This document shows positions 3,209-18,130 of a DNA stretch of 33,225 bases, one piece after another. The stretch's first letter is position 1, and every line of letters starts with the position of its first letter. This stretch comes from Methanosarcinales archaeon. Its GTDB lineage: Archaea > Halobacteriota > Syntropharchaeia > Alkanophagales > Methanospirareceae. A model generated the notes under the pieces. It ran no database searches and was not told the DNA's origin. It saw nothing but the letters and a program-made list of their open reading frames with translations. The translations under genes and the position numbers were made by a program. The stretch lies in the NCBI GenBank assembly GCA_003661125.1, contig QMVO01000001.1, positions 1-33,225 on the forward strand, given 5' to 3'.

Positions 3209-3222
3209 GGGGTAAGATAAAA

Positions 3223-3417
3223 ATGGAAGATAGAAGCGAAAGGGCGACCCTGAGCACGAATGTGAAGAAACAAAAGGTGGAACTGGACATCCATGCCGTG
3301 ACTATCCTGAACGAGGTGCGAGACAGTATAAAAAGCGAAGGCAAGAGCGGGATAACATATTCCGATGCGATAAGATGGCTTGCTGTAAAAGCAGGCATAC
3401 GCGAAGGCACAATGTGA
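3223..3417 (+). CDS. small protein, possibly RHH-like DNA binding (64 aa)
   Basis: VELDIH strand, then helices AVTILNEVRDSIK and ITYSDAIRWLAVKAG. It is the first gene of a rightward structural-like cluster. Confidence 0.4.
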   Translation: MEDRSERATLSTNVKKQKVELDIHAVTILNEVRDSIKSEGKSGITYSDAIRWLAVKAGIREGTM

Positions 3418-3484
3418 GCACGAAAATACGAACCACCAAACGATAGGTTTTTTATATTATTATCACATAAACTAACATAAACAG

Positions 3485-3862
3485 ATGGCGACTGATATCG
3501 AACTGAGTACAGGTCAGCACACAGTGAAGTGGTCAAAGACCGGTTATGATGATTTAATAGCGACGATAAATGTAACAGATACAGGCGTCTCCTGTGTTAG
3601 TGTTCAAAATGGTGCGTGTTATAGTAGCACACCGCCAGGCGTGCTTATCCCATCGTCGTTTACAGTAGTAGGATATTTAAAAGCAAGTGGAGCAGTTACC
3701 GACTTTGATAGCTGGGTAGCGAGCAAAGGCGGTAAGGATAGTATTGAATACGCAGATGTTCTAGAAATAGGAGACGCTTATTTAGGATTTGTGGATATAG
3801 GATTTACACCTAACTATACTAATGTCTTAACTGCGGGAGATTACTATCTTGGACTGGGTTAG
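3485..3862 (+). CDS. small protein that starts inside a PEGA-like module (lacks the first strand) followed by a Cys-containing beta module
   Basis: The N-terminus MATDIELSTGQHTVKWSKTGYDDLIATINVTDTGVSCVSVQNGACYSSTPPGVLIPSSFTVVGYLK aligns with the giant protein's penultimate module GRHYIKAVASGYETLEMIISVSDSGIRCEYALSQGAVCYGSTPSTPGAHGLYSRNFIVKMYLK. An in-frame taa at 3473-3475 rules out an upstream extension. Confidence 0.65.
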   Translation: MATDIELSTGQHTVKWSKTGYDDLIATINVTDTGVSCVSVQNGACYSSTPPGVLIPSSFTVVGYLKASGAVTDFDSWVASKGGKDSIEYADVLEIGDAYLGFVDIGFTPNYTNVLTAGDYYLGLG

Positions 3863-3919
3863 AATGGCAAAACTTTATATATACAAAACGAATAATCAAG
3901 TATTTAGGAGTGGAGTGAG

Positions 3920-4999
3920 ATGACACTCACTGATGCTGGTCGTGAATACATAGCGAAGAACATAGGCGTAGGAGACTGTTGGGTTTATAGCGGCTTATCA
4001 TGGGTTGCAGAGAGCGTAACTGGCGATAGAGTTAATAGGACAGGTGGTACCGGAAAGGCAGTAAAAGATATTATTGACCCTACAACTGATCATATAGAAA
4101 TTAACGGGCTGAACATATCGAAAGCTACTTTAAGAGCTAACAATGGCGGAAATGATGTTACGATATCAGATGTAACTAACGAGATTTTAAAGAATGATGG
4201 TTATCCAGCAGGAGAAACCCAGTATTGTGTAGGTGCACCCGGACCGGGTCCAACGGGAGAGGGTGAGCTGTGTGTATTAACATCAGTAGACCTCGCTGAT
4301 GTATATATTGATGATGAGACAACTCCGAATCCTGACCTGTCGCCTTCGCGTAGTGAGCCACCGTATAAGTGTACAAAAGTAACAGCAACACCCGAAGGCA
4401 TACAGCACAAAGTTACAGTAAAGAAAACAGGCTATACGGCAGAACCAGTATATGTTATTTGCGTTGAAAACCAGAAAGCATATGTAACTATTTACTTGGA
4501 GCCTGAAGCTGGTACAGATGTAGGTACGCTAGAGTTGCGCGCATATAAAGAGGGTACAACAGAGGAGATACATGCAAACTTTGATATAGAAGGCTTAAGT
4601 GGAGAGGAGAAATTTCTCACTCCGCATACAATGAATGTCCCTGCAAAGACTTACGACTGGATACGGTTCTATTGCACCGGCTTTGAACCATACGAAGCTA
4701 CAAATGTGACCGTTGAAGAGGGTGAGACAACTACTGTAACTGCATACATGAAACCAAAAAGATTGTGGAAACAAGTGTATGTAGGACCACCAATCGCGCT
4801 TTTAGTAATTGATGACTTCGATATACCCAGTAGATTATATTGGGATAATCCATACGATTTTAGCGTAACTATAAGATGTTTTGAAGCAGGTTGGTATTAT
4901 GCTAATATAGAGCTAAGAGAGCCTGGGAACTTCATGGCAACTTACGACCCTGCAGACTTAGGACCAACGCGCTGGACGATACCTCTGCCTGAGAAATAA
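3920..4999 (+). CDS. PEGA-repeat structural-like protein (359 aa)
   Basis: GGAG Shine-Dalgarno motif upstream. At least two PEGA-like units: ...ADVYIDDETT...PEGIQHKVTVKKTGYTAEP, and ...EIHANFDIEG...VPAKTYDWIRFYCTGFEPYEATNVTV. Contains a GPGPGP linker. No signal peptide. Confidence 0.6.
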   Translation: MTLTDAGREYIAKNIGVGDCWVYSGLSWVAESVTGDRVNRTGGTGKAVKDIIDPTTDHIEINGLNISKATLRANNGGNDVTISDVTNEILKNDGYPAGETQYCVGAPGPGPTGEGELCVLTSVDLADVYIDDETTPNPDLSPSRSEPPYKCTKVTATPEGIQHKVTVKKTGYTAEPVYVICVENQKAYVTIYLEPEAGTDVGTLELRAYKEGTTEEIHANFDIEGLSGEEKFLTPHTMNVPAKTYDWIRFYCTGFEPYEATNVTVEEGETTTVTAYMKPKRLWKQVYVGPPIALLVIDDFDIPSRLYWDNPYDFSVTIRCFEAGWYYANIELREPGNFMATYDPADLGPTRWTIPLPEK

Positions 5000-5131
5000 A
5001 TTTCATATTTTGAAATTAACACAAAAGTTAAGCTTGAAACAACACGAATCGTTCCAGGACCGGATAGCTTGCCCGCAGGCACTTATGTTGCTGTTGTTGT
5101 AGGATATAGCGGTAGGAGGTAACGATAGAAA

Positions 5132-5464
5132 ATGGGAAGAAAAATCGTCGAGGTCGTGATAGGAACTGTGGAAGTCGAAAGTGGACCGGGACCAGGTCCT
5201 GGACCGGGACCATCTCCTTCTGTTATAGATTCATTCATAGAAGAACATCGCAAGCTGAAAAATATACTTGACAGATACGGTGCGCAAGGCATGTGCGTAC
5301 CGCGTAGCGCACTGGAAAGAGAAAGCGGCATAAAAGGTGAACGCCTTGACAAACACATCGAAGTGTTTCAGGCACATTCTGCTATTTCCGAAGTAGACGG
5401 GGACATTTTATGTGGTCGTGAAGCTTTATCAAAACTAAAAGAGAAAATTAAACTGGAGCTATAA
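5132..5464 (+). CDS. small protein with a (Gly-Pro)5 linker and a C-terminal winged-helix-like domain; paralog of the next gene
   Basis: TAGGAGGT Shine-Dalgarno motif at 5113-5120. IDSFIEEHRKLKNILDRYGAQGMCVPRSALERESGIKGERLDKH aligns with IDRFIGTHKTILALLDIAGSKGECMTAEALKEQTGVSIEEIKRH in 5469-5729. Confidence 0.6.
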   Translation: MGRKIVEVVIGTVEVESGPGPGPGPGPSPSVIDSFIEEHRKLKNILDRYGAQGMCVPRSALERESGIKGERLDKHIEVFQAHSAISEVDGDILCGREALSKLKEKIKLEL

Positions 5465-5468
5465 CAAA

Positions 5469-5729
5469 ATGACACCAAATGAAGAAATAGATAGGTTCAT
5501 AGGCACCCACAAAACAATTTTAGCTTTGCTTGATATTGCAGGAAGCAAAGGTGAATGCATGACAGCGGAAGCTCTTAAAGAGCAAACTGGAGTGTCAATT
5601 GAAGAAATAAAACGGCATAATACCCTCGCAGAAATTGATTTGGGAATAGTACAGCCAGCAGAGGGGCTAACATGCTCCAGACGCGCTATTGCTGTGTTAA
5701 AGCGGAAACTTGAAGCGGCGATAGAATAG
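5469..5729 (+). CDS. small winged-helix-like protein; tandem paralog of 5132-5464
   Basis: The ORF starts 4 nt after the upstream stop. The alignment is given under 5132-5464. Confidence 0.6.
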   Translation: MTPNEEIDRFIGTHKTILALLDIAGSKGECMTAEALKEQTGVSIEEIKRHNTLAEIDLGIVQPAEGLTCSRRAIAVLKRKLEAAIE

Positions 5730-5731
5730 AG

Positions 5732-7090
5732 TTATTTTCTCACTCTCTTTTTGTGTTTTTTACTCTTTGCTTCCATAAACTGTTTTACAACTTCAGCTAT
5801 TTCATTATCGGACATTTTGTCTATAACCGATTGCCATAAGATTAGCGTTTCATAGCCGTGTTGTGAAAAGATAGCTTTTCTTCCGAATTCTGTCATTTTC
5901 CACGAGTTGTTTAATGTACCGTCATGAAAGACATCACCAAAGCATTCTATAAGTTGCATTCTCCCATTTATATTAACAAAATCCGGAATAAGCCCTCCTA
6001 TAGTTATACCACAATTACAACCACCGTTATATGCCCATTCGCCAGGAATATACTTTTGTAAAACTTTGTCTATGCGATATTCAAATTTGTTTGGCTTCGC
6101 TCTAAGGCCAGCAAACATCTTTTTTGCAACCTCGCTATTTCTCCATTGTTTTAGTGCGTTTTCAGACCTTTCTTGCTTCCCTCTTTCATCATTTGCCTGT
6201 TCTTTTATAGACTTTATGGGAATCTCAAACTTTTTTAAGCTTTTTAGAATAATTGTGCGACTACATCCAATCTCCTCTGCGATTTCTGTTATACGCTTTT
6301 GCTCAACGATATATCTTTGCCATAGAAAATCCCTATCATGCGCTTTTGGATACTTGAAGTTAGGATTGTTCTCTAGTTCCATGCTTCGGATAGGTATCCC
6401 TAAAGACTTTAAAACCCTACTTACACAGGTTGGGCTACATCCTACTATTGCAGCTATTTCTGTTTGGCTTAAACCTTCGGTGACATATTTTTGTATCATC
6501 CATTCCTTATTATACAGTTGATGATATTTTCGCTGTTTTTGATGATAAGAAGAAGTGTAATAGAAAAAGGTGCTCCGCCTCTTAATCCCCGCTTTTTCGA
6601 GTGCGTTACAAACTGCTACTGGGCTACAGCCTACAATTCTCGCAATGTCGCAAGAGTCGTGTTCCCTGTCTACATATTGCTCTTTTAGCCACTCGGCATC
6701 ATGTAGTAGTGGATATTTCGTAACCCTTTCACACCCTTTGCTTACCGCTTCCGACCTCGGTCGACGCGGAATATTTAATCTCCTCATAGCCTTACCAACA
6801 ACTTGGGGACAGCAACCTAACTCTTCTGCAATATTGAAAGTACTGAGTTCTTCCATCCAATATTTTCTAAAAAGCCAATCCCTATCTTGGAGTTCTGGAT
6901 ACTTAACGGGTGTTTTTATCTTTCCTGCTTCGGATAACGAACGCCTTGGGATATTCAACTTTTCCATCCAATCCAAAACGGTGCTGTATGAGCACCCTAC
7001 TTCTTTCGCTATCTCTACACTACTTAACTTTTCCACCCAATATTTCTTATATAACCACTCCTTATCCTCAAGCTGTGGGTATTTTGACAT
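5732..7090 (-). CDS. putative homing/selfish endonuclease: five tandem HTH repeats plus a C-terminal Vsr/DUF559-like PD-(D/E)XK nuclease domain
   Basis: Five repeats of about 56-63 aa each: KYP.L.D.(E/D)WL...Y......(E/D)IA...GCS...V......L.IP.R. The C-terminus ...GGLIPDFVNINGRMQLIECFGDVFHDG...GYETLILWQSVI matches the PDF...IE.(F/D)G..(W/F)H...GY..l..W pattern of Vsr-like nucleases. Confidence 0.65.
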   Translation of the reverse strand: MSKYPQLEDKEWLYKKYWVEKLSSVEIAKEVGCSYSTVLDWMEKLNIPRRSLSEAGKIKTPVKYPELQDRDWLFRKYWMEELSTFNIAEELGCCPQVVGKAMRRLNIPRRPRSEAVSKGCERVTKYPLLHDAEWLKEQYVDREHDSCDIARIVGCSPVAVCNALEKAGIKRRSTFFYYTSSYHQKQRKYHQLYNKEWMIQKYVTEGLSQTEIAAIVGCSPTCVSRVLKSLGIPIRSMELENNPNFKYPKAHDRDFLWQRYIVEQKRITEIAEEIGCSRTIILKSLKKFEIPIKSIKEQANDERGKQERSENALKQWRNSEVAKKMFAGLRAKPNKFEYRIDKVLQKYIPGEWAYNGGCNCGITIGGLIPDFVNINGRMQLIECFGDVFHDGTLNNSWKMTEFGRKAIFSQHGYETLILWQSVIDKMSDNEIAEVVKQFMEAKSKKHKKRVRK

Positions 7091-7177
7091 CTACACACAC
7101 CACTAATAAGTTTATATTCATAGAATATAAATATTAAATTGGTATGGCGGTTGTGGATTTAAACATCTACACACACC
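7087..7177. repeat. 15-nt perfect direct repeat acatctacacacacc (7087-7101 and 7163-7177)
   Basis: Read directly. The first copy contains the start codon of the 5732-7090 gene. The second lies 76 nt away, between the arms of the 7140-7188 inverted repeat. Confidence 0.8.
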
Positions 7178-7188
7178 CCGCCATACCA
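7140..7188 (-). terminator. 11-bp inverted repeat (tggtatggcgg / ccgccatacca) downstream of the giant gene; possible terminator or recombination/homing site
   Basis: Arms at 7140-7150 and 7178-7188 are perfectly complementary, with a 27-nt loop. It sits 38 nt past the giant gene stop (7226) and is followed on the minus strand by AT/T-rich sequence. Confidence 0.3.
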
Positions 7189-7225
7189 TAATTTTATCGA
7201 GAACAAGCTATTTTTATGATTGCTT

Positions 7226-10200
7226 TTAGTCTATAACCGTTATTGTTGCATCTCCGGGTACTGACTCGAATCTAACAGTCTTTGTTACCGCCGCTTTCTT
7301 CAAATACATTTTCACTATGAAGTTACGCGAATATAACCCATGTGCACCGGGTGTTGAAGGTGTGCTACCATAACATACCGCCCCTTGCGATAATGCATAT
7401 TCACACCTGATACCCGAATCAGACACAGAAATAATCATCTCTAATGTTTCGTATCCACTGGCAACGGCTTTTATATAATGCCTGCCGAACGGTATGAGCC
7501 CGCCTGTTGCTATCTCCTTATATGTAGCGTTTGGTATATCATACGGTTTGTAATAGAACTTTGCGTTGATATTGTAGCCATCAGAGCCTGAATATGCTGA
7601 TAAATATATATATGTAGCTCTACATACTTTAGCAACTGTTGTTTCGTTTGCTTTTACATCCACATGGAACTTACATGGCGAGAAGCACTTGTCGAGTATA
7701 TTCACATAACAATAATCGTACTCTCCTTCCTTGCCCGCTATCTCTACCGTATGTGTACCTGCGGGCAATTTAGCCGTTACTGCATACCCACCGCCCTTAT
7801 CAGCCCCATCAATAAAGAAAGCAGCAACATTGCGAGGCGTAGTAAATGTAATAGTGTCGTATGTCGCTACCGTTAACTCTCCTTCTGGTGGTTTGGGTGT
7901 ACTTACCGTGATTTTCTGTGTTGTAGTCCCACAATTAGGCGGAGTTGCATCGTTACATGCTTCCAAGCGAATGCCCCACACGCCAACCTTATCAAAAGTT
8001 ATAGTTATTGTTTTACCAGTCTTCGTGGTTACAGCCCCGTCCGGGTCTGTAATTGTCCATGTCCACGACACGATTTTGTATGGCGCTTCAGTATGTGCCA
8101 TGCCTGTTAGTGTTACAGTCTCGCCTACACTAACAGTAGTAGGACCAATAATCTTTACATGATCTACACCCGGTGGCGCACCAGGACATGCGGGGAATGT
8201 GTCTCTACCAGTATCTGAACCAGCATAATATTCATAGATCATGTCAGCATCGTCACGCGTTACTTTACCGTCACCATTAACATCAGCTCGTTCCTTGAAT
8301 TCTGATTCTGATAAACCACCTACTTTATCTTTAATCGCATTCCAGCCGAGTTCTACATAATCCATAACGAGTTTTGCATCTTCGTCTGTGACATAATTAT
8401 TGGGGTCGTTGTTCACATTGCCATAGTTACTGCATGGTGATTCTCTGTATTCATACGCCCTTGATACAGTAACTGTCCTGTGCTCATCAATAGTTCCAGC
8501 ACAGATTTTGAGATGTATCTCGTAACTGCCTGCCTCAGTAAATGTGTGTGTAACTACCCGTCCAGTCTTCTTAACATCGTGCGGGAATGTCCATTCCCAA
8601 TCAGTTATTTCAGAATCAGCACAGCCTTTTGCATGCCCTTCAAAAGTTGTAGGAGTACCTACTCGTACGCTTTCACGCGCTCCTGAATAATAACTGAACC
8701 ATGCTCCCGTTGCTGGGCATACATACGCTTTAGGATTCCAGACGATAAGTTTTTCTTCTTTCGCTCTCTTCTCAGCATTTAAGAATTCTTTAGTATCTAC
8801 ATACTTGTTGCTATGGTAAAAGAAAACTTCACCTACACCGTTTCTTACTGCTTCTAAACATATATTTCTCGTTCCGTAGTAAATCGTTCCTAAGATTCTA
8901 TAATATTTGTCTAGCTGATCTAGTGGATCAACATATACTTTTACATCTGCACCGTCGATTGTACTAAACAGCCACATAGTAGCCTCGTCGTAAGCCCATT
9001 TAGTCACATCACGACAAGTTTCTGTGTTTGGAGCGTTCTCAACCTCTATCCTGCACGATACATAATGCCCCGCTATTGCGCCTTTATCTGGAGCGTTATA
9101 TCCAGTAAGTCGTATTGTAGCATATACAGGTATTCCCGGCTCCATATCAGGAGCTTTTTTAAGCCCTTCGAGAAACTTTTGGTATGTATCCCATCTCTTT
9201 TTTAACTCTTCTTGGGTCAAGCCAGTATGTATTGTATCACCGTCTATCACATCACATACATGTGTATAGAATTCACATTCATCTTCTTTCAGATGCGGTG
9301 GAACTTTATAAACTCGCGCAGCCAACATTTTGCGGCTTCTATCATGGAATTCTAAGCATGACATCGCAAATTTCCAGTATATCCCATAAAATGCTCTCCC
9401 AAACAGTGAGTTTACCCACGCTTTTGTGTCTTTTATCCACTCGGAATAAGCAAGCAGTTCCTGTTCTGCTGGTTGCCACTGCTCATCCTTTATGTAACCC
9501 TGAATCATAATTGGCCAGTTTTGAGGTAATTCTTCGATCAAAGCCCATGCGTGTGTCATCCCCCAACCAATATAAAGACCAATTGCCGATAATGCCAATG
9601 GACCAGCAATCCAAGGTTTTTTTAGATATGTCGCTGCATCTCTTATGAGTTCTTTTGCATACGATGAGAATTTTTGATCTACAAGCATAGCCGCTTTTGC
9701 ACGGCTAATACCAAAATCTTTGCTGACACAGTCAATAGCTTTATCTCGCACGCCGGGATAGAATCCAGATTTTTTGAAATCGTCTGCAAGCATATCCATC
9801 TCTGCAATGATTCTCGTTGGTCGTGTTCTTTCACTTCCAGCTCTTTTACCCCATTCATCAAACTGGTCGATAAGCGAACTTGCAAGTTGGTTCCATCCGC
9901 CTCTGAACGAACCTCTAGGTATTGGTGTATCTGTTTCGATACAAATCGAGCGCACTATGTTCATTAAGGCAGTATCTAAATCAAACCCTACATTGTTTCT
10001 TATTGCATCTAATTCTTCGTCTGTGATAGTTCTGAACCTATAAGCAAGTTTTGCCTCTGCTGGTCCTACTATCTCTCCCGTGTCCGTTACTTTACCGCCC
10101 AGCTTAGCAAAATAACGAGCAAATTCTTCGTCTGATAGCTTACGGACAGTTTTAAACATAACTTCAGGATTGTAGTATGAGAGGAATCGAATTGCTAATC

Positions 10201-13200
10201 TACCAGGATCAGATACCGCTTCTGCTCTTATAGCATTTCTTATCGTATTTATCATTAAGTTTTCTAGCGAATCATCCGTCTTCGTAAAGTGATACCACTG
10301 TATATGATTCTCTGCAACACGCGCTATTTCCTCTATCTCTTCACGGTTCGCACCTGTAGCGACGAAAATCTCATTCCATCTCTTCTCAGTGTAATGTTTA
10401 CTTAAATGTTCCTTCACATCATTGAAGAACTGTAAACGAACGCTTGGTTCTACATCTATTTCTGGAAGTTCGTTCAGTTCTGTTATTACACGATCCCAAT
10501 CTTTGGCACGCAAGGCTTGATTTATCCGTCTCAACCGTGTTTCGTCCGTGTGTGCTAACGCTTTCCAAAGTTGCGGAAATAGTGGATGTTTTGGACTGGT
10601 AATACCTTGCGCGTATAAGACTTTAGTAAGTTCAGGCAAATCAAGCTCTTCTTCTCCTCTGACAAGCTTGTTTAACGAATTAATAGCTGAGAACTTGCAA
10701 TGCCATGCCGATGGGCTACACAAAGCATCTGCGGCTTTTATGAACACCGTTATATTTTTTGCTCTATCACCATACCGCAATGTGTAGATATACGCAGGAT
10801 ATGCCTCGTCTAAGAGCTTAGCGTATTCGTCGGGGAATAAAGAAAGTTCCTCTAATGCTTCGCGATACGATTGATGTGAAAGAGACTCCTCGATCATATT
10901 CTCTAACCTTTCGAGATCGATATAAGCTAAAGTATCGTCTATCTCATCGGCATAGTCTGATACATCACGAGCACTGATCCTAATTATAGCAGCATCATCA
11001 AGCATTACCGATGCTTCTGCAAGTTCACCTTTTACTAAGTGCTTAATATACTTCTCTTTCTCCTCTGGCCGTGCTACTCTCCAGAAATGCCAGAACCTAT
11101 CTTCAGAGAACGCTTCAAAGACTGCTTTTCTAATGGCTTCTTTTGAATATGCAGCAGCTTCACTGAGGAGAAGACCCGTTTTTGAGAATTTGCCGAGTTT
11201 ATTAGCTTTATTAAATGCTGTCAATACCAATGCATAATCGTGCATAGCAGGTGTCATAGGTGTCCCATCAAGAGATTTACCGTGCTTTACAATCTCAAAA
11301 GATTCAAAAAAGTGATATTTAGGTTTTGCCCTACGCGCAAGCTTGAATGCACCATCCCAATTGTCATTTAACAATTTAGCCAATCTCTCTCCAGAACCGC
11401 GTACAAGGTCATCATCTCCTATATATGCAAGTAATTCACCAGCAGCTTCTCGCACATTGTCCCTAATATCCGCAACTACCTTCGCATAATCTGGGTGTGC
11501 AGGATCAATATTATCGATTTGCTTTTCAAGCTCGTCCAGCCACTGGTTAAACTTACTAATCGCTTCCGAATCTTTTATTGCAGGATTATTGAGAATGTCT
11601 TCTCCTAATCCTCTAGCTTTTTCTATGTCGCCATCAGCGATAGCCTTAATCCATAAATTCAATCTCGCCTCGTCACCATATACCAGTGTTCTATAAAATC
11701 TTTGTGGATCCTCTTCTATGAAATTCCTAACAGCAGCAACATCATCGCCATATTTACTGCCTTTCCTTATGACTTTACCCAGATACTTTGTTATATTGCC
11801 ACCCGGCACCATTGGCAGTAGCGAGCATACCACAACTATCGGAAACATAGCGAGGTCAAACGCATCGGGATGATACTCCGCACCATATATGTCCTTGCCC
11901 CTAAAAACACCTGAAATCACATTTGCACAATATACCGGGTCCAGCATATCTCCCCAGAACCGGCGGCATTCATCTGAATCTTTTGGTATGCCTACGAGCT
12001 CGCAAGCCTCACCAAAGACACCATAGCGAGAGTAGAGATATATTTCCTTCGTGCCCTCGAACTTACCACACCAAACAGGACCGGTAGGTAAATATCCTTT
12101 CGATACGCTAGGTCCTATGCCATATGTCTCGCCTTCTACCAGTCCATCGGCTTTAGTAAATACAGCCTTACCATCAGGATAGCTATCTGGTGATTTAAAG
12201 ATAGGCACGGCATCCGGTGTAGATAAAAAGCATCGTGCCCAGCCATACGCCTTTTTACAAAGAATTTGATCTCCTGTTTTAAATCCTCTAGTGTGTACAA
12301 TAAACTTATCCTCCTCTGTAATAAACCTGAGCGTGAACTCAAATTCATAAGTACCTTCGCCGTTCTCACCTTGGCGACGTGTTGTCACAGGCTTTGTCCA
12401 GTCCTCATGCATCTCTTCATTCAAATAGCCCGGCTTACCCGCTATGAATCCATATCTACAAGCAGCCCCGGGTAGTGATGGTAAGCCTATACTAAGAACA
12501 CCGTTATCGTCTGTCTTCAGGAGATTACCATAGCCGTTCCAGCTCTCGGTGGTGCATATACCTTGGTGCACCGTTATATCAGAGCACGGAACTTCCTGCC
12601 ATGTACCTTCAAAAATCTCTTTCGTGACACTTACATACGCGTGTTTTATACCATGACCTTTCTCGTCCTTTACGGTTATCCGTATTTCGTACGGTCTTCG
12701 TGTTTCTGTCTTGAAATCGAGCTCGTCATCTGATGGACAACCCTGTATTATCTGCCCGTCTTTGATATGGAAACTATAATCCTTGCCATATTCCATATCA
12801 ACATCGCAGCTTAAGAAGATTGTTTCGAGCTCGTCCTTGTTTAATGTTGTAGTACTGGTTTCGATACCGACTGTATTTCCAGAGCTACAGCCTGTACCTT
12901 TACGCAGCCACAGACAGCGACGGTACGATGGTAATCCACCCGTGTTCTTTACTATTAGCTTGAATAGTGGACGTTTACAATCCCCTAAATCTATTGTGCT
13001 GTTCTCTTTTAAGCCCCAGAAAGTTATACCGTTATCAATACTGTAAAAAGCCTCTACAATCTCTAACTTAGCTGGGGGTATCTTTTTTAATTTCAAGATT
13101 AGAGCCCATCCATAACAAGCGGTAAAAAGTTTACAACTCTCGCTGCCATAGGATTCGTAGCCTTCCTTTGATGCACATGCTGTGTATACTGTCCCTTTAT

Positions 13201-14269
13201 CAAGATTGCATAAATCACACTCACCATTTGCATCCGTCCCGTAGCCGCTACCGTCAGGCTTCTCGCATTGAATAGAGTAGGTGCCCATATCAATTGCTAC
13301 TGTGGCACCTTTTATGGGCTTACCCGAAGGTTCAATCACCTTAACGCGCTGTTTGCATGTGGTACTTCTAAGTTTCAGTGTTTTAAGGGATGTACAAGCA
13401 ACAAATTCTGTGCTGGAGTCTGAAATCACTTCATAACCTGAAGGTGCTGACGCTTCTGCTACACACCAAACTCCTTCTTCAATATCCTTTACTGTACATT
13501 CGCCATTAGAATCAGTTGTGCATCTACCAAGCTCTTTTGCAGTGCCTTTCTCTCTTACTATAACAACAGATTGGGAGACACGGGCACCCGTATCTTCCTC
13601 AATAACCCTAAAGGATTGGTTGCATGTAGACTTAGCCGATACTGTTATATACTCAGTTCTAGAACAGTCAGTATCATACAGACTAACCTGCCATGTGCCT
13701 GTAGTAGCATCATCAGGGATTGTATAAACCTTACCGCCAGTGCCGGACACAGTCCACGACTTGCCAGGTATCCCACTGGGATACGCACCGATATATAAAG
13801 TGCTATTTGGTGGTGCATTTTTGTAGCTTATCGCTACCGTATCGCCTTGGTAATATTCATCCTCGTCTGTCGAAACGGAGCAGGGCTTAGTTGTTTTTAC
13901 TTTCAAGTGTATAGTGCCAGCCGAATCATGATAATAGCATGTTCCACCTTCATACGAACCGCACTCTATCACCGCATCTTTGTCTGATGAGGGCATGCTG
14001 AAGGTACAATCAGGCATTTTCTCTTCCCATGCGCCTGCACTTATATACTTCTTTTTCCAGCAACGAATTTGTCCGCCCCACTTAATATAGTAGCAAGCCG
14101 TGCCTGCGGTGTTATTTGTGTTATTAACAAATGCTCTTGCGGTAAGTGTTGCCCCTGCTGGCGCTATGAGCGTATCGCCAGGATGGTATATCTTGTTATT
14201 GTACCATATATATGCACTATAAAATTCGTATGCTGGTCCTAGTGTTCGCCCTTTCGGTTTCCTCGCCAT
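7226..14269 (-). CDS. giant (2347 aa) multidomain virion/adhesin-like protein with an embedded staphylococcal-nuclease (SNase)-like domain
   Basis: A single uninterrupted ORF. All aa positions are approximate. N-terminus: Ig-like and Cna-B/transthyretin-like repeats (TTDSNGECTVKDIEEGVWCVAEASAPSGYEV; TDANGECDLCNLDKGTVYTACASKEGYES). About aa 400-520: CARDB-like module. About aa 840-1650: helical region, with hydrophobic helices FDLAMFPIVVVCSLLPMVPGG (just before it) and WIAGPLALSAIGLYIGWGMTHAWALI (inside it). About aa 1665-1825: SNase-like (VIDGDTIHTG...IRLTGYNAPDKG...DKYYRILGTIYY...EAVRNGVGEV). Then two PKD-like units, two dockerin/EF-hand loops (NNDPNNYVTDEDAKLVMDYV; DVNGDGKVTRDDADMIYEYY), PEGA units, and a truncated PEGA end VRFESVPGDATITVID*. 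No signal peptide. Confidence 0.8.
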   Translation of the reverse strand: MARKPKGRTLGPAYEFYSAYIWYNNKIYHPGDTLIAPAGATLTARAFVNNTNNTAGTACYYIKWGGQIRCWKKKYISAGAWEEKMPDCTFSMPSSDKDAVIECGSYEGGTCYYHDSAGTIHLKVKTTKPCSVSTDEDEYYQGDTVAISYKNAPPNSTLYIGAYPSGIPGKSWTVSGTGGKVYTIPDDATTGTWQVSLYDTDCSRTEYITVSAKSTCNQSFRVIEEDTGARVSQSVVIVREKGTAKELGRCTTDSNGECTVKDIEEGVWCVAEASAPSGYEVISDSSTEFVACTSLKTLKLRSTTCKQRVKVIEPSGKPIKGATVAIDMGTYSIQCEKPDGSGYGTDANGECDLCNLDKGTVYTACASKEGYESYGSESCKLFTACYGWALILKLKKIPPAKLEIVEAFYSIDNGITFWGLKENSTIDLGDCKRPLFKLIVKNTGGLPSYRRCLWLRKGTGCSSGNTVGIETSTTTLNKDELETIFLSCDVDMEYGKDYSFHIKDGQIIQGCPSDDELDFKTETRRPYEIRITVKDEKGHGIKHAYVSVTKEIFEGTWQEVPCSDITVHQGICTTESWNGYGNLLKTDDNGVLSIGLPSLPGAACRYGFIAGKPGYLNEEMHEDWTKPVTTRRQGENGEGTYEFEFTLRFITEEDKFIVHTRGFKTGDQILCKKAYGWARCFLSTPDAVPIFKSPDSYPDGKAVFTKADGLVEGETYGIGPSVSKGYLPTGPVWCGKFEGTKEIYLYSRYGVFGEACELVGIPKDSDECRRFWGDMLDPVYCANVISGVFRGKDIYGAEYHPDAFDLAMFPIVVVCSLLPMVPGGNITKYLGKVIRKGSKYGDDVAAVRNFIEEDPQRFYRTLVYGDEARLNLWIKAIADGDIEKARGLGEDILNNPAIKDSEAISKFNQWLDELEKQIDNIDPAHPDYAKVVADIRDNVREAAGELLAYIGDDDLVRGSGERLAKLLNDNWDGAFKLARRAKPKYHFFESFEIVKHGKSLDGTPMTPAMHDYALVLTAFNKANKLGKFSKTGLLLSEAAAYSKEAIRKAVFEAFSEDRFWHFWRVARPEEKEKYIKHLVKGELAEASVMLDDAAIIRISARDVSDYADEIDDTLAYIDLERLENMIEESLSHQSYREALEELSLFPDEYAKLLDEAYPAYIYTLRYGDRAKNITVFIKAADALCSPSAWHCKFSAINSLNKLVRGEEELDLPELTKVLYAQGITSPKHPLFPQLWKALAHTDETRLRRINQALRAKDWDRVITELNELPEIDVEPSVRLQFFNDVKEHLSKHYTEKRWNEIFVATGANREEIEEIARVAENHIQWYHFTKTDDSLENLMINTIRNAIRAEAVSDPGRLAIRFLSYYNPEVMFKTVRKLSDEEFARYFAKLGGKVTDTGEIVGPAEAKLAYRFRTITDEELDAIRNNVGFDLDTALMNIVRSICIETDTPIPRGSFRGGWNQLASSLIDQFDEWGKRAGSERTRPTRIIAEMDMLADDFKKSGFYPGVRDKAIDCVSKDFGISRAKAAMLVDQKFSSYAKELIRDAATYLKKPWIAGPLALSAIGLYIGWGMTHAWALIEELPQNWPIMIQGYIKDEQWQPAEQELLAYSEWIKDTKAWVNSLFGRAFYGIYWKFAMSCLEFHDRSRKMLAARVYKVPPHLKEDECEFYTHVCDVIDGDTIHTGLTQEELKKRWDTYQKFLEGLKKAPDMEPGIPVYATIRLTGYNAPDKGAIAGHYVSCRIEVENAPNTETCRDVTKWAYDEATMWLFSTIDGADVKVYVDPLDQLDKYYRILGTIYYGTRNICLEAVRNGVGEVFFYHSNKYVDTKEFLNAEKRAKEEKLIVWNPKAYVCPATGAWFSYYSGARESVRVGTPTTFEGHAKGCADSEITDWEWTFPHDVKKTGRVVTHTFTEAGSYEIHLKICAGTIDEHRTVTVSRAYEYRESPCSNYGNVNNDPNNYVTDEDAKLVMDYVELGWNAIKDKVGGLSESEFKERADVNGDGKVTRDDADMIYEYYAGSDTGRDTFPACPGAPPGVDHVKIIGPTTVSVGETVTLTGMAHTEAPYKIVSWTWTITDPDGAVTTKTGKTITITFDKVGVWGIRLEACNDATPPNCGTTTQKITVSTPKPPEGELTVATYDTITFTTPRNVAAFFIDGADKGGGYAVTAKLPAGTHTVEIAGKEGEYDYCYVNILDKCFSPCKFHVDVKANETTVAKVCRATYIYLSAYSGSDGYNINAKFYYKPYDIPNATYKEIATGGLIPFGRHYIKAVASGYETLEMIISVSDSGIRCEYALSQGAVCYGSTPSTPGAHGLYSRNFIVKMYLKKAAVTKTVRFESVPGDATITVID

Positions 14270-14281
14270 TATCTTTAACTA

Positions 14282-15109
14282 TTAAAAGTGATAAAAATAA
14301 ATATTGTTCCATTCAAAATCAGGTGTCCAGCTCTCAAAGGTAAAGTGCCTACTAATAACTCGTGCGTTACGCTTAAGATTTTCCTCTAATAAGGGTTTTA
14401 TTACTTGGTTTACACTCTGAAGAAGATAGACATAAACACAATCTGCCTTCGCTATATCCTGAGCCGCATTCATGAAGCTTTCCTCTTTAATTGTTACAGG
14501 CAAACCTTTCGTGTTCTCTCTCGCCTGTTCTGCACGCTCATGATTGAGTTCATAGCCTATGCACTTCGCACCGAACTCGCTTGCTGCTATCTTCAAGTTC
14601 CTGCCATCGCCACACCCCAGCTCCACAAAAATCTCGCCCGGTTTTAGGTTCGCTTTTTGCAGTGCTATTCTTATCTCCTCTTCAGGTGTTGGCACATACA
14701 CTACACACTCGCTATCTTGGCACTCACCTGACCACATCACATGATAGTGGCAGTGAGTAATGCCTGCAGGAAATTGCAATGTGATTGTTGTCGGTACGCC
14801 ATTCAAATTGCCTGAATAAACAAGCTTTGTCGGGTATTTCATGAATGCGAATAGATCAAAAGGTGCGTGTAGTTTATCTTGTAATAGCCATTCAAACTCC
14901 GCTGTGTAGTTGCTATCGGTTTTTGTGATATGGTCTGTGACAATCTCTTCGCTGTGTGTCGCACTATCATAATATCTAAGTGTCGTACCCTCGGCAGTTA
15001 CAGTAATAGTGCGTGCCGTACCACTTTGTGTATCTTCTGCTTTATGCTCTTGCTCTCCTGCTTTCTCCCGTTTTTCGCGTAAAATGCGTGAAATTAAGTT
15101 ATCCCCCAT
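14282..15109 (-). CDS. class I SAM-dependent methyltransferase with an N-terminal domain of about 140 aa of unknown function
   Basis: Motif I VELGCGDGRN; acidic motif II IGYELN; later CVYVYLL strand. No DPPY/NPPY-type DNA-MTase motif was seen, so the substrate is unknown. The stop is 12 nt upstream of the giant gene start. Confidence 0.7.
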   Translation of the reverse strand: MGDNLISRILREKREKAGEQEHKAEDTQSGTARTITVTAEGTTLRYYDSATHSEEIVTDHITKTDSNYTAEFEWLLQDKLHAPFDLFAFMKYPTKLVYSGNLNGVPTTITLQFPAGITHCHYHVMWSGECQDSECVVYVPTPEEEIRIALQKANLKPGEIFVELGCGDGRNLKIAASEFGAKCIGYELNHERAEQARENTKGLPVTIKEESFMNAAQDIAKADCVYVYLLQSVNQVIKPLLEENLKRNARVISRHFTFESWTPDFEWNNIYFYHF

Positions 15110-15116
15110 CTTAAAG

Positions 15117-15764
15117 CTACGATTCGCGCCTGATTACAAATACCTCCTCACCGAGTGTGGCATTCGGTGCGCCCTGATAGACAGCAGAGTTCGCGTTGTA
15201 ACGCATCCATGCTGCCATAACCTCGGCGAAGTTATCGTACTTATTAGTTTCATATTCGATCGCGTATTCACGGCACAGTCCCTGGAACGCTTCCCAAGCT
15301 TGGTGAATAGTATAACCTTCTAATAGCGAAAGCAATGGCACTGATAACGTCCTGACGAAATCAGACAGATATGCATGTTTTTCTGACGACTGGGGCAGAA
15401 GTGCGAGGTTACGGAACCCGAAGTATGCTTTTGCACCTTTTGATGCTGCGCTAAGCGCGAGCCAGTTACCACTCTCGCACGCTATTGCTATAAATATTGA
15501 ACCGCTCACATAGTCGATATTGTTATCATTAAATATCGCTCTGCCATCGCTGCCCACTAGCCTCCGCTCTTCACCATGACCCGAAAAAAGTATCAAATCG
15601 TATTTCTTATCCTTTGGGAGGTTACCACGTGTCGCTTTTTCGCCCTCAAGAGAATCCACCTCGAACGCTTCCGCTTCTAACGCCTCGATACAGACATGTG
15701 CGAGTATTGATGCCGCTTCCAATACTTTTGTTCCTTCGTACGGTGCGATTACCAGCGCGTACAT
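15117..15764 (-). CDS. putative caspase-fold (clan CD, CHAT/gingipain-like) cysteine peptidase, minimal 215-aa form
   Basis: A hydrophobic strand followed by His-Gly (YDLILFSGHGEE), then a hydrophobic strand followed by Cys (SIFIAIACESG). Order and spacing match the caspase/CHAT His-Cys dyad. Motif-level evidence only. Confidence 0.4.
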   Translation of the reverse strand: MYALVIAPYEGTKVLEAASILAHVCIEALEAEAFEVDSLEGEKATRGNLPKDKKYDLILFSGHGEERRLVGSDGRAIFNDNNIDYVSGSIFIAIACESGNWLALSAASKGAKAYFGFRNLALLPQSSEKHAYLSDFVRTLSVPLLSLLEGYTIHQAWEAFQGLCREYAIEYETNKYDNFAEVMAAWMRYNANSAVYQGAPNATLGEEVFVIRRES

Positions 15765-15778
15765 ATTTTTTCTTAGCT

Positions 15779-16114
15779 CTATTCTTCCCCTTTCTCCGTC
15801 ATCAACTCAGCAAGTCTAATCTTTATACTCTCCACTCTTATCCTCCGCCCATCCTCTGTCACAGGTGTGAATCGCCCTTCATCATCAAGTATCTTTGCCT
15901 GTACAGGCTGGTAAATCTGCCCGAACATAAGCAACTGGTAGCGTCTGCCTGCAGGTACTACAACCCGAAATTCACCGTTCATGTCCGTGCTCGTTTCCGC
16001 TACCACATTATTGCCCGCTTCATCCATTATCTTTATCGGCGCCGCAAAAATCGGTTCACCTGTCTCTGAATCTATCGCTATGCCTTCTATTACCGCCTTC
16101 TTCTCTTCTACCAT
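15779..16114 (-). CDS. stand-alone carboxypeptidase-regulatory-like / transthyretin-like beta-sandwich protein (111 aa)
   Basis: IEGIAIDSETGEPIFAAPIKIMDEAGNNVVAETSTDMNGEFRVVVPAGRRYQLLM matches the i.G.v.D..g.Pi..A.v......g......tD..G.f....p.G.Y pattern. GGGAGTGA Shine-Dalgarno motif upstream. Confidence 0.6.
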   Translation of the reverse strand: MVEEKKAVIEGIAIDSETGEPIFAAPIKIMDEAGNNVVAETSTDMNGEFRVVVPAGRRYQLLMFGQIYQPVQAKILDDEGRFTPVTEDGRRIRVESIKIRLAELMTEKGEE

Positions 16115-16164
16115 TTTTCACTCCCTAATAAGCATTATGTAAAAATAAAATAAAAACTTTTCTA

Positions 16165-16473
16165 TTAATATCGCTTCCATTTGGTTTTATATTTGCGAGC
16201 GTCCATCCGAACCATCAGAAGCCACTCTACTTTTTTCACTTTATGCGTTTCGCGCCATTCTTTGAGTTTTTTCAAGAATCCACGCGTACTACCTGTCTTG
16301 ACTTGCACGAAATCTATCTCGCTACCGTCCGGCGAAATCGCAACGAAATCAAACATGTTAAAAATATCTTGTGTGCCATATTTCGAGGTCTTTTGTGGCT
16401 TAAACACTTTCCAGCCCCGTTTCTCATATTCTTGCACGGCTTCTCGTTCATGTAAACTACCTTTTGTGGTCAT
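16165..16473 (-). CDS. Hjc/archaeal Holliday-junction-resolvase-like PD-(D/E)XK nuclease
   Basis: KGSLHEREAVQEYEKRGWKV ... DFVAISPDGSEIDFVQVK follows the Hjc pattern G...ER.....L...G ... D..A......(I)E(V)K. The usual E.K reads Q.K here. I prefer the ATG at 16473 (MTTKGS...) to the track's TTG at 16488. Confidence 0.55.
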   Translation of the reverse strand: MTTKGSLHEREAVQEYEKRGWKVFKPQKTSKYGTQDIFNMFDFVAISPDGSEIDFVQVKTGSTRGFLKKLKEWRETHKVKKVEWLLMVRMDARKYKTKWKRY

Positions 16474-16669
16474 CGTATTTCCTAACAACTAAATTCAAAA
16501 TCGCCGCTGTTATTTCACTGATAAAGGAATCTATTGGGTATTTGGTATCCAAAATCGCAATAAAAAGCGTATTTTTGTATCTTTTGAAGATAAACAATTG
16601 AGGGTTACCGCCTCTCTTCCTGAAGATGAAAGAATCGGCTTGAGCGGATACCGAGGTGCTATTTGGCAT
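16457..16669 (-). CDS. hypothetical small protein (70 aa), uncertain
   Basis: ORF track. It fills part of the gap between 16473 and 16902 in a tightly packed operon and overlaps the next gene by 17 nt. No motif. Confidence 0.3.
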   Translation of the reverse strand: MPNSTSVSAQADSFIFRKRGGNPQLFIFKRYKNTLFIAILDTKYPIDSFISEITAAILNLVVRKYDDHKR

Positions 16670-16670
16670 T

Positions 16671-16790
16671 TTACTTTTTCTTTGCTTCCCATTCCTTTAT
16701 TAAGCTTATAAGCGCTTTTAGGTTTGCTACTTTTTCTTCTATTTCCTCCACTGCTTCTTCCAGCATCTGCAAGTGCTCGCGTTCTATCAT
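16671..16790 (-). CDS. possible 39-aa coiled-coil sORF (not in ORF track)
   Basis: Hand translation: MIEREHLQMLEEAVEEIEEKVANLKALISLIKEWEAKKK*. GGAGAAGG lies just upstream. The stop is 1 nt before the ATG of 16457-16669. Confidence 0.3.
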   Translation of the reverse strand: MIEREHLQMLEEAVEEIEEKVANLKALISLIKEWEAKKK

Positions 16791-16901
16791 ATCCTTCTCC
16801 TCTTGCGCATGAAACTGAACGGGCTACTATCACATTCACGATGACTACCCAAAAATGTAAAATTACCGTTACATCTACGGCGCCTGCATAAGAACAGGAA
16901 T

Positions 16902-17585
16902 TCATGTGTCTTTTCTTCGCTCATTTTCTTTCATCTCATCCAAAAGCATTCGTATATCGATCTCAGCTTTCATTATCTCAAAAGCATCGTCCGCAATACC
17001 TATCTCATCTTTTATTAGCTCAAGAGCATCATCGAATTCTATCTTATATTTCTCTGCTAATCCCCGAATAAACTTAAGCTTTCTCTTTAGTTGTAGTTCA
17101 AGAAAATTCCTTATCTCTTTTCCAGCTACCTCTTTGATCGCATAGAAATACTCCTGCAACTCCAAAAATTTATTAATTACGCAGATTATCCCGACAATTT
17201 CAGGATTATTGACTTTGATTCTCCTTTCGTTTGGCGTCGGTTGGAGACTTTCTAATTTCACAGGGTATCTCGTTCCTTCTACTATTGTAATCAGTGCTCC
17301 ATCATCATTGAAATCAAAGATAAAACGACGAAAATTGGTATAATCCTCTCTAATATCCTCTTCAGCGAATTCGCTTTTCTCGCGCTTTATCAAGCAAGTT
17401 TTTATTTTTTCTGCTGTCCTTGAGCACACAGGAATCTCTTCTTTATCACGCAATCGAATCACTAAAGACCTGTAAGAATGACTGATAACCCCTTTCACTC
17501 CTAAAGCTTTTAGTGTTGATTTATCTCTCGTAACGACTGTTTTACTTACCATTTCTTCTATGTCTTTCTTTATCTTTTCACTCAT
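16902..17585 (-). CDS. hypothetical protein (227 aa)
   Basis: ORF track. ATGA overlap with the upstream gene. Lys/Glu-rich. No family recognised. Confidence 0.55.
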   Translation of the reverse strand: MSEKIKKDIEEMVSKTVVTRDKSTLKALGVKGVISHSYRSLVIRLRDKEEIPVCSRTAEKIKTCLIKREKSEFAEEDIREDYTNFRRFIFDFNDDGALITIVEGTRYPVKLESLQPTPNERRIKVNNPEIVGIICVINKFLELQEYFYAIKEVAGKEIRNFLELQLKRKLKFIRGLAEKYKIEFDDALELIKDEIGIADDAFEIMKAEIDIRMLLDEMKENERRKDT

Positions 17586-17926
17586 TCTCTCCTATCGCCT
17601 CCAAACATAACTCCTTTATCATCTTCCACTTCCAAATACAATATATTATTTTTGATCCACCATGATTTTATTTCGGGATGGTTAGCGAGCAACTCACGGA
17701 GTGCAGCATACTCTTCCGCAGTTAATATTCGGTCTGCGTGACTAGGGATATAATATCCTTCTTCGGTTAAAGCTTCTGAAGATGCAGAAGATGTGTCATA
17801 ACGCCAAGTGATACGATACCAAACAAAGTTAGCGGGGGCTTCGGTATACAGGCTGCTACTTTCATTATAAGCTAAAACTACTTGTTCTTCCATCCTTGGA
17901 TTTTGCTCATTGAAAGCAAACATCAT
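17582..17926 (-). CDS. hypothetical protein (114 aa)
   Basis: ORF track. 4-nt ATGA overlaps at both ends. Confidence 0.55.
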   Translation of the reverse strand: MMFAFNEQNPRMEEQVVLAYNESSSLYTEAPANFVWYRITWRYDTSSASSEALTEEGYYIPSHADRILTAEEYAALRELLANHPEIKSWWIKNNILYLEVEDDKGVMFGGDRRE

Positions 17927-18129
17927 GTTAACATATCCCTCAATATTTTTAACTTCCTTATTGTCCTTTCCCTAATAGCTTCCCTCTCTCTGGCTTTCAA
18001 TTCTTTCAATTCACTTGTGCTCATGAAAAAGGCTGCAAGTGGAAAGTCGTAGTATTCTGCGATTAGCTTCAGCTTCTCAAGTTCAATTTGTATGAACTCG
18101 CCTGAAGTTTGCTGTTTTTCTTTGCTCAT
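17923..18129 (-). CDS. hypothetical small protein (68 aa)
   Basis: ORF track. ATG start. 1-nt gap to the upstream gene. Confidence 0.5.
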   Translation of the reverse strand: MSKEKQQTSGEFIQIELEKLKLIAEYYDFPLAAFFMSTSELKELKAREREAIRERTIRKLKILRDMLT

Positions 18130-18130
18130 T

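Follow-up and report, generated by a model that had tools for sequence, protein, structure and literature searches.

We analyzed a 33,225-nucleotide stretch of DNA (hereinafter, the window) from a Methanosarcinales archaeon (GenBank assembly GCA_003661125.1, contig QMVO01000001.1) that contains a giant gene coding for a protein of 2347 amino acids (aa). We tentatively propose, with a confidence that falls somewhat short of even, that this giant protein is a modular surface or envelope protein which is anchored by a membrane hairpin and mediates host interaction in a mobile element of ANME-1 archaea that is unclassified and probably virus-like. The window coincides with the whole of contig GBM163 (FWV0163, Guaymas Basin, Joint Genome Institute assembly 3300014911), which Laso-Perez, Wu et al. 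2023 (PMC9894754) give in their Table 9 and in a supplementary FASTA file; mobile elements were retained in that study only if they had at least three ANME-1 CRISPR protospacers. The assignment of the giant gene to an archaeal mobile element, which had been made in a preliminary description of this DNA from the sequence alone, is thereby supported.

Integrity and domain architecture of the giant protein

The open reading frame (ORF) of the giant starts with ATG and extends over 2347 codons with no internal stops; its 7044 nt make up 21.2% of the window, as previously noted (21%), and the chance of 2347 stop-free codons, given the base composition of the window, is about 1e-68. Both the GC skew and the AT skew are negative throughout positions 6-22.6 kb, which is consistent with minus-strand coding in this region. 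In a separate ENA assembly, the giant is divided, at 100% identity, between two contigs, one of which encodes the initial 1436 residues (P0001) and the other the final 912 (P0002) (here and below, P-numbers denote proteins and L002 to L013 loci of relatives). Because the contig bearing the N-terminal part, P0001, terminates in a Nextera adapter (ctgtctcttatacacatct; ctgtctcttatacacatctgacgctgccgacga), this split is an assembly artefact. Uninterrupted orthologs of 2024-2304 aa are present in other assemblies, and the single frame seen in the preliminary description, which had allowed that the ORF might prove to be broken, is intact. The giant and its parts, all on the minus strand, are as follows.

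7226-14269, minus strand: giant ORF, 2347 aa, about 262 kDa, pI 5.4 (ORF and composition computation)
12038-14269, minus strand: N arm, aa 1-744, Cys-rich (4.1%) array of beta-sandwiches (Pfam, composition)
11864-12037, minus strand: pre-helix module, aa 745-802 (family alignment, charge count)
11798-11863, minus strand: hydrophobic segment 1, aa 803-824, AFDLAMFPIVVVCSLLPMVPGG (hydropathy, alignment)
9614-11797, minus strand: all-alpha core, aa 825-1552 (AlphaFold2 (AF2) model, composition)
9521-9613, minus strand: hydrophobic segment 2 and conserved EExPQ motif, aa 1553-1583 (hydropathy, alignment, AF2)
9275-9520, minus strand: helical stalk, two long helices joining segment 2 to the nuclease, aa 1584-1665, pLDDT about 80-90 (AF2)
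8732-9274, minus strand: SNase/thermonuclease-fold domain, aa 1666-1846 (Pfam, PHROGs, PDB search, Foldseek)
8492-8701, minus strand: PKD domain 1, aa 1857-1926 (Pfam match 1862-1926)
8228-8437, minus strand: dockerin type I-like module with two Ca-binding repeats, aa 1945-2014 (Pfam, sequence)
7922-8158, minus strand: PKD domain 2, aa 2038-2116 (Pfam match about 2045-2096; PDB search)
7280-7912, minus strand: PEGA-like beta domains, aa 2120-2330 (Pfam), the last of which is homologous to the head of a 125-aa protein described below
7229-7276, minus strand: C-terminal 16-residue tail, VRFESVPGDATITVID, first half of a PEGA domain, followed by the stop codon (sequence comparison)

Domains were identified using Pfam, PHROGs, NCBIfam, PDB sequence search, and Foldseek searches against PDB and BFVD. 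The chimeric plan given in the preliminary description, namely adhesin-type arms, a helical core, two membrane-type helices and a nuclease, is recovered in this analysis. The outer arms had been described as Ig, Cna-B, CARDB, PKD, dockerin and PEGA repeats; Pfam supports SpaA/prealbumin-like (aa 238-291) and CarboxypepD_reg (aa 309-375) domains in the N arm, along with the two PKD domains and the dockerin (Dockerin_1, aa 1952-2012, 23.5 bits against a cutoff of 22.9, with both D/N-rich loops visible in the sequence). The match to PEGA (PF08308) is below the threshold (best stretch aa 2259-2285, 12.7 bits against a cutoff of 20.8, E 0.13), and Pfam detects no CARDB domain in the giant ORF, CARDB being located in the neighboring 763-aa ORF. 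The only PHROGs match to the giant is an endonuclease family that covers the SNase region, and neither the core nor the giant as a whole shows internal sequence repeats by BLAST.

The pre-helix module includes several family-invariant residues (Cys755, Cys767, Phe770, Asp776-Pro777 and Pro800), a DPxYxAN motif and an acidic N-side flank. The hydropathy scan of the whole protein yields exactly two hydrophobic segments, aa 803-821 and aa 1554-1572 (Kyte-Doolittle values of 2.14 and 1.33, respectively), which are the two helices quoted originally. Segment 1 contains three near-invariant prolines and is followed by a K/R-rich flank; segment 2 is part of a 43-residue model helix, with K/R-rich sequence before it and acidic sequence after it. 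The intervening core is Cys-poor (0.7%) and mildly acidic (pI 5.5), and hence not a basic DNA-binding matrix. The AF2 model of aa 697-1854, which was built with 15 relatives, consists of helices from about aa 750 to 1653 (mean pLDDT 61.5), in agreement with the helical center previously placed at about aa 840-1650. The confidence of the model is good for aa 1336-1846 only and low for aa 920-1330, and a Foldseek search with this model identified no significant structural relative of the core in PDB or BFVD, long helical proteins, tape-measure proteins among them, being matched at probabilities below 0.15 only.

Two hydrophobic segments and a predicted membrane hairpin

Under the positive-inside rule, the charges that flank membrane segments are an established basis for reading topology. 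Across 13 family members, the 15 residues preceding segment 1 include 12 K/R and 48 D/E in total, and the 15 residues following it include 64 K/R and 6 D/E; around segment 2 (11 members), there are 38 K/R and 17 D/E before and 3 K/R and 19 D/E after. Interpreted with this rule, the flanks suggest a hairpin that leaves the core cis to the membrane and places the two arms trans to it. In all 10 full-length members, Cys makes up 2.5-4.7% of the N arm, 0-0.9% of the core and 1.8-2.6% of the C arm, a distribution that fits the same membrane hairpin. The charge asymmetry extends to the entire family and, as such, fits a stably anchored hairpin better than a protein threaded through the envelope. Segment 1 may not be a classical transmembrane helix.

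The absence of a signal peptide, noted from the outset, is supported by N-terminal hydropathy. The N terminus of the giant is free of hydrophobic regions: within its first 50 aa, no stretch of 12 residues exceeds a hydropathy of 1.27, compared with a maximum of 3.35 for the window's own 223-aa secreted-type protein, and a signal-peptide-like hydrophobic region is found in none of 10 family N-termini. Nor does the giant show the marks of archaeal secreted S-layer proteins or adhesins: it lacks a Sec signal, its C terminus is a polar beta tail with neither a PGF-CTERM nor a transmembrane anchor, and the NCBIfam S-layer SlaB profile matches it with 15 bits against a cutoff of 700.

The preliminary description had likened the giant to tape-measure or ejection proteins. 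According to this interpretation, the giant would belong to a tailed or DNA-injecting virus, with the core setting the length or forming a conduit and the hydrophobic segments inserting in the host membrane. The core is indeed long, all-helical and variable in length among relatives (210-757 aa), as in phage tape-measure proteins, and is flanked by hydrophobic segments; furthermore, the top BFVD match (E 4.7e-5, but with a TM of 0.1) comes from an uncultured tailed phage and is a protein of 1342 aa that contains an SNase domain. However, helicity is not family-specific, no Pfam or PHROGs tape-measure family matches the giant, and the Foldseek matches to tape-measure proteins have probabilities below 0.15 (TM below 0.1 in BFVD). 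Large adhesin arms at both ends are atypical of tape-measure proteins, and the hairpin-like charge pattern suits a static arrangement. Genes for a tail tube, tail chaperone, baseplate or any other tail component, and for portal, terminase or capsid, were not found in the window or in the surroundings of the gene in relatives, and in place of a tape-measure gene context the neighbors of the giant encode a methyltransferase fusion, a caspase-fold protein, small beta proteins and a helix-turn-helix (HTH) protein. Thus, the analogy is not upheld; this reading is poorly supported, and we consider it very improbable.

The nuclease domain

The nuclease that had been reported to follow the core is a domain of the staphylococcal (micrococcal) nuclease family (PF00565, aa 1746-1845, E 1e-9, 39.2 bits against a cutoff of 21). 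Foldseek comparison of the model with S. aureus nuclease structures gives TM values of 0.79-0.86, and PDB sequence search agrees. For position numbers, the family was aligned to a reference sequence of the S. aureus nuclease; the resulting alignment agrees with the PDB match. D21, R35 and R87 are present in 13 of 13 family members, position 43 is occupied by an acidic residue (E or D) in every case, and position 40 varies among D, N and Q. This conservation of catalytic positions across the family argues for a functional metal-dependent nuclease or nucleic-acid-binding site. The domain of the giant shares with the staphylococcal and EcnA-type (NCBIfam) nucleases the fold, the DGDT motif, R35, R87 and the acidic position 43. 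Unlike these enzymes, it is embedded in a 2347-aa protein, has a 30-aa helical insert after the DGDT motif and, relative to the canonical set, carries the replacements D40 to N, T41 to A and E43 to D. Positions 40 and 43 correspond to N1724 and D1727 of the giant. The NCBIfam equivalog profile for the calcium-activated nuclease EcnA gives 31 bits against a cutoff of 180.

A small family of mosaic proteins

An exhaustive HMMER search with the core as the query retrieved 17 proteins, all unnamed, from among 1.84 billion representatives, in keeping with the original remark that the giant could not be matched to a described family. A word-indexed search of 5.8 billion clusters with the core returned the giant itself only, and the module-alignment query returned nothing; scans of IMG/VR with the core and with the module alignment detected no relatives. 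A tblastn search of GenBank phages, a collection that does not include ANME-1 viruses such as OP413839, yielded nothing for the core or for a 324-aa ORF.

The family members share the same plan in the same order: a variable beta-sandwich N arm, the two-Cys/Asp-Pro module, segment 1, the helical core, segment 2 with EExPQ, the SNase domain with conserved catalytic residues, PKD, dockerin and PKD domains, and a half-PEGA tail. Both the giant itself and its core are the longest known in the family. Compared with its closest relative, the giant shows 63% identity in aa 1-100, 2-25% in aa 100-400 (a portion of the N arm that is swapped relative to this relative), 69-86% in aa 400-900, 16-30% in aa 1200-1800 and 62-89% in aa 1800-2347, and the sets of N-terminal domains vary among relatives. 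This mosaic pattern, with identity ranging from 2% to 89% along the giant, points to recombination, as in host-interaction proteins.

The most divergent portion between close relatives, aa 1200-1800 (16-30% identity, compared with 60-89% in the flanks), includes the start of the nuclease. This, together with the presence of a nuclease domain, could speak for a polymorphic toxin or contact-dependent effector, in which the repeats would present a nuclease toxin that the hydrophobic helical region translocates into competitors. However, the nuclease is internal (aa 1666-1846 of 2347), with 500 aa of PKD, dockerin and PEGA domains behind it, known toxin-delivery domains (Rhs, PAAR, filamentous hemagglutinin) gave no matches, and there is no conserved small immunity-like gene downstream, the downstream genes varying by locus. 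The toxin interpretation is, accordingly, also poorly supported and appears to us the least credible of those considered here.

The module recurs with 84% identity in a Methanophagales (ANME-1) metagenome-assembled genome (MAG), on an 82-kb contig that is syntenic with window positions 1556-19239, and with 83% identity on a contig of a Pescadero Basin MAG. Relatives are located on contigs of 48-91 kb; JAPDIG010000001.1 (82 kb), Ga0466254_023870 (91 kb) and ZHAN22-2 scaffold_86 (80 kb) are candidates for complete ones. On the 2.7-kb contig L013, a stand-alone 342-aa ORF (P0009, positions 1462-2490) matches part of the core only (about aa 1213-1515) and may represent a fragmented or split giant gene of another element.

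The giant belongs to a small undescribed family; the protein, the family, the gene cassette and the split-PEGA tails are undescribed in the sources that were searched. The supplements of Laso-Perez et al. 2023 contain no mention of PEGA, SNase, PKD or dockerin (PMC9894754), and a 2026 paper on ANME-1 hotspots has nothing on the domains of the giant. The architecture, that is, a predicted membrane hairpin around a large orphan helical core, with an internal SNase domain and a half-domain tail, is new; the component domains, and giant modular host-interaction proteins of mobile elements as a kind, are already known.

The conserved gene cassette

The genes around the giant gene include the following.

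15779-16114, minus strand: 111-aa CarboxypepD_reg-like protein, conserved, first gene of the cassette (library match, locus comparison)
15117-15764, minus strand: 215-aa caspase-fold protein, conserved upstream neighbor (AF2, Foldseek, alignment)
14282-15109, minus strand: 275-aa protein directly upstream of the giant (library match, locus comparison)
5732-7090, minus strand: 452-aa multi-HTH protein directly downstream of the giant, without a catalytic recombinase domain
3920-5729, plus strand: conserved convergent genes for a 359-aa beta-rich protein (3920-4999), a 110-aa protein (5132-5464) and an 86-aa HTH-like protein (5469-5729)

The order of the cassette, in which genes for a CarboxypepD_reg-like protein of about 100 aa, a protein of 214-216 aa and a domain of about 120-135 aa precede the giant gene, is shared by the window, L003, L006 and L008; L012 shows the same sizes and order. 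The third slot differs in L002, which has a DUF498 protein, and in L010 and L011, which have a 200-aa protein and a radical SAM/SPASM enzyme (L010, 11357-12346). The domain of about 120-135 aa, which corresponds to the N-terminal 135 or so residues of the 275-aa neighbor, is free-standing in L003 and L006 (and probably L012); in the window and L008, it forms part of a fusion with a protein-lysine-methyltransferase-like domain (NCBIfam NF041081, 72.7 bits). The opposite strand, where the fetched sequence reaches, encodes a PEGA protein and proteins of about 110 and 86 aa, and a 472-aa counterpart of the multi-HTH protein occupies the same place in L010 and L011.

The 215-aa protein, whose gene accompanies every giant gene, is probably a clan CD peptidase. 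His63 and Cys96 are invariant in 25 close homologs, and in the AF2 model (pLDDT 78, pTM 0.80) they are located after strand 3 (57-61) and strand 4 (90-94), respectively. The best Foldseek matches are caspase-6, -4 and -3 (E 9e-4, TM 0.4-0.5), and the Pfam profile Peptidase_C25 matches 2 of 5 members of the family with E 0.006. No library names the protein itself, one homolog carries the UniRef name CHAT-domain protein, and a PDB profile search with the family found nothing. From the conserved adjacency of the two genes, we infer that the 215-aa protein might process the giant.

Just after the stop codon of the giant gene, there is a hairpin (7140-7190, ggtatggcgg ... ccgccatacc). Its loop contains a 26-nt sequence that is repeated 76 nt on (7076-7101 and 7152-7177, 85% identity) and overlaps the start of the next gene.

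Half-PEGA tails and a candidate partner

The tail of the giant is one of several of its kind in the window, which additionally encodes the following proteins.

3485-3862, plus strand: 125-aa protein that starts with the second half of a PEGA domain (head, 3485-3590; profile match)
26853-30440, minus strand: proteins of 323 aa (EF-hand/dockerin-like loops), 106 aa and 763 aa (CARDB), with truncated PEGA/CarboxypepD_reg tails (...IDGxxKGTT, then stop; sequence)
32107-33111, plus strand: 334-aa protein with a tail of the giant's class (...IVTFSSEPEGATIELIE, then stop; sequence)

Five proteins of the window (the giant and those of 334, 763, 323 and 106 aa) end in truncated openings of PEGA/CarboxypepD_reg domains (7229-7276, 26853-26945, 29141-29235, 29469-29560 and 33061-33111) at a fixed distance from the stop codon; half-PEGA tails in this position were found in 12 of 309 open frames. 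Tails of the same kind end the giants of L002, L003, L008 and L009 as well as unrelated proteins. When the tails were joined in silico to the head of the 125-aa protein, the PEGA score, which is 17.9 bits for the head alone, increased to 30.6-36.6 bits with the three longer tails and to 21.5-24.7 bits with tails of the giant type (21.5 for that of the giant itself, the PEGA cutoff being 20.8). Each chimera produced one contiguous match to the PEGA profile, compared with 17.1-17.4 bits for shuffled tails and no match for tails alone. The simplest reading of these comparisons is that the half-PEGA tails might dock in trans onto the 125-aa protein as a candidate partner.

Invertible DNA that would join the tail of the giant to the 125-aa ORF was considered and rejected: inverted repeats are at chance level, and a single 17-nt match is shared coding sequence. 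The partner gene is found in differing positions and orientations among the loci; because its placement varies and no meaningful inverted repeats flank it, DNA inversion is unlikely.

The 763-aa protein shows a weak cohesin-like match (E 0.008, 16.8 bits against a cutoff of 24.1). Cohesin and dockerin proteins abound in the genomes of ANME-1 (PMC9012536).

The tails are reminiscent of C-terminal sorting tags that are cut by clan CD peptidases, such as the C-terminal domains of the type IX secretion system (cut by PorU, family C25) and glycosylphosphatidylinositol (GPI) signals (cut by GPI8, family C13), in that unrelated cargos share a C-terminal element and a caspase-fold (C25-like) protein is encoded beside the main cargo of the ANME-1 element. 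In contrast to these systems, the tail comprises just 16-30 residues and is half of a PEGA sandwich, no secretion system is present, and the putative peptidase lacks a signal peptide. The parallel with PorU and GPI8 is therefore an analogy of logic, not homology, and cleavage or transpeptidation of the tails is hypothetical. A more elaborate scheme, which we regard as speculative and quite improbable, casts the giant as the central organizer of a new archaeal virus-like particle, with the hairpin across the membrane, the core as the inner layer and the arms as the outer one, at least five proteins assembled on the 125-aa hub through split PEGA domains in trans, and the caspase-fold neighbor trimming or ligating the tails in the manner of PorU and GPI8.

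A tentative model and its main alternative

Under the model that we favor, the two hydrophobic helices of the giant would form a membrane hairpin that keeps the Cys-poor helical core on the cis side (the cytoplasm or the particle interior), so that the adhesin array at the N terminus and the nuclease-PKD-dockerin-PKD-PEGA arm at the C terminus would both lie exposed. These two arms would bind the ANME-1 cell surface, where the dockerin could engage the abundant host cohesins, and the Ca-type nuclease could cut extracellular or incoming DNA. The last 16 residues would dock the giant onto the 125-aa protein, which supplies the other half of the PEGA sandwich, as might also be the case for at least four other proteins of the element with similar tails. 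The caspase-fold neighbor and the enzymes encoded in the adjacent slot (lysine methyltransferase, radical SAM/SPASM) would be involved in maturation of the giant.

The most serious alternative, albeit one that we consider unlikely, is that the window belongs to a plasmid or an integrated element and that the giant functions in the ANME-1 cell envelope, similarly to aggregation substances, mediating cell-cell contact for transfer or within the consortium, with the nuclease acting on extracellular DNA. Neither the window nor the flanks of relatives yielded hallmark genes of virions, a close relative is located on the largest contig of an ANME-1 MAG, and the positive-inside pattern is as expected from insertion into the cell membrane during synthesis. 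The unclassified mobile genetic elements of Laso-Perez et al. 2023 include likely plasmids (PMC9894754), and ANME-1 cells display many dockerin and cohesin proteins (PMC9012536). However, all 10 family N-termini lack a signal peptide and so, with the exception of the 223-aa protein, do the module's other beta-rich proteins; a conjugation ATPase or relaxase was seen neither in the window nor in the sequence flanking relatives; and the common tails and their shared partner suggest that a particle of several proteins is put together in the cytoplasm.

The hairpin-anchored host-interaction protein of a virus-like element has to be weighed against several observations that speak for caution. We know of no standard pathway by which a folded arm of 800 aa would cross a membrane without a signal peptide, as the N-out topology implies. 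Segment 1, with its three conserved prolines, is modeled by AF2 at low confidence, and segment 2 is only marginally hydrophobic in the window protein (1.33). Positions 40 and 43, canonically D and E, are N and D in the giant, so that nuclease activity may be reduced; the Foldseek support for the caspase fold of the 215-aa protein is moderate, with flavodoxin-like folds also among the matches; and the docking, dockerin-cohesin and processing steps follow from sequence logic only. Capsid, portal, terminase and packaging ATPase genes were not found in the window or in the 20-26 kb around the gene in relatives, and the morphology of GBM163 is given as 'Unclear' by the authors of the contig (PMC9894754). 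Of the virion protein suggested in the preliminary description, the adhesin arms and the membrane-type helices are retained; virion membership itself is conjectural and, given that no capsid or packaging genes were found and that those who published the contig were unable to assign it to the viruses, unproven.

Comparison with known systems and implications

Among known proteins, the receptor-binding fibers and spikes of viruses, such as phage tail fibers with Ig-like and PKD domains and the terminal-fiber proteins of spindle-shaped archaeal viruses, resemble the giant in being very large, modular arrays of beta-sandwiches with mosaic, recombining sequences, a conserved attachment end, variable distal parts and no signal peptide. 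Unlike these, the giant has two membrane-type helices within its sequence, an orphan helical core that reaches about 750 aa and an SNase domain, shows no sequence or fold match to a known fiber, and is encoded in an element without a recognized capsid gene. With dockerin-cohesin assemblies, both of the cellulosome type and the non-cellulosomal sets of ANME, the giant has in common a type I dockerin with two Ca-binding repeats in the C arm, a neighbor of 763 aa with the weak cohesin-like match given above, and a cohesin-rich host lineage; it differs in that its dockerin is internal rather than terminal.

ANME-1 archaea consume much of the methane that is made in marine sediments. Many CRISPR-targeted mobile elements of these archaea are unclassifiable because no structural proteins are recognized in them, and the giant with its cassette is the most conspicuous conserved module of one such unclassified group. 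If the giant is indeed an envelope or host-recognition protein, it would provide a marker for finding and classifying these elements, a candidate for receptor-binding and DNA-degrading activity, and possibly a new assembly principle in which split PEGA domains are common to several proteins. If it is instead a plasmid-borne cell-surface protein, the family bears on cell adhesion and DNA exchange in ANME-1.

Other features of the element

No terminal repeats were detected in the window. The genes at 14.3-22.9 kb were considered as a possible structural module of a tailed virus and rejected, since no structural matches were obtained for their products, which comprise small regulators, unknowns and a PD-(D/E)xK-like protein. 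Between the large beta-rich genes, an 87-aa ORF with three hydrophobic helices (26533-26796, minus strand) resembles capsid proteins of spindle-shaped viruses in size and character; no relatives of this ORF were detected in IMG/VR, GenBank phages (tblastn) or Pfam. The spindle-shaped viruses that infect ANME-1 (Itzamnaviridae and Tepeuviridae) are recognized by a hydrophobic alpha-helical major capsid protein that matches the family models, and the screen in the paper describing GBM163 left this element as 'Unclear'.

TnpB/Cas12f-like (OrfB_IS605) genes are scattered among these elements (window 30931-32025, minus strand; L004 7216-8280; L008 15235-16641), which suggests insertions of the IS200/IS605 type. 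A 361-aa LAGLIDADG homing-endonuclease-like ORF is located at 1556-2641 (plus strand), and a LAGLIDADG_2 gene also adjoins the giant gene in L007. A papain-family (C1) cysteine peptidase (24876-25865, minus strand) is encoded next to the 223-aa protein (25869-26540, minus strand), which has the sole classical signal-peptide-like N terminus in the structural-looking region. Finally, a 355-aa protein (22763-23830, plus strand) belongs to PHROG 1362 (unknown function, E 1.7e-45), with relatives in 243 phage records, mostly actinobacteriophages; a gene of the same type is located near the cassette in L002 and probably also in L010-L012, where 370-aa genes occupy the same place.

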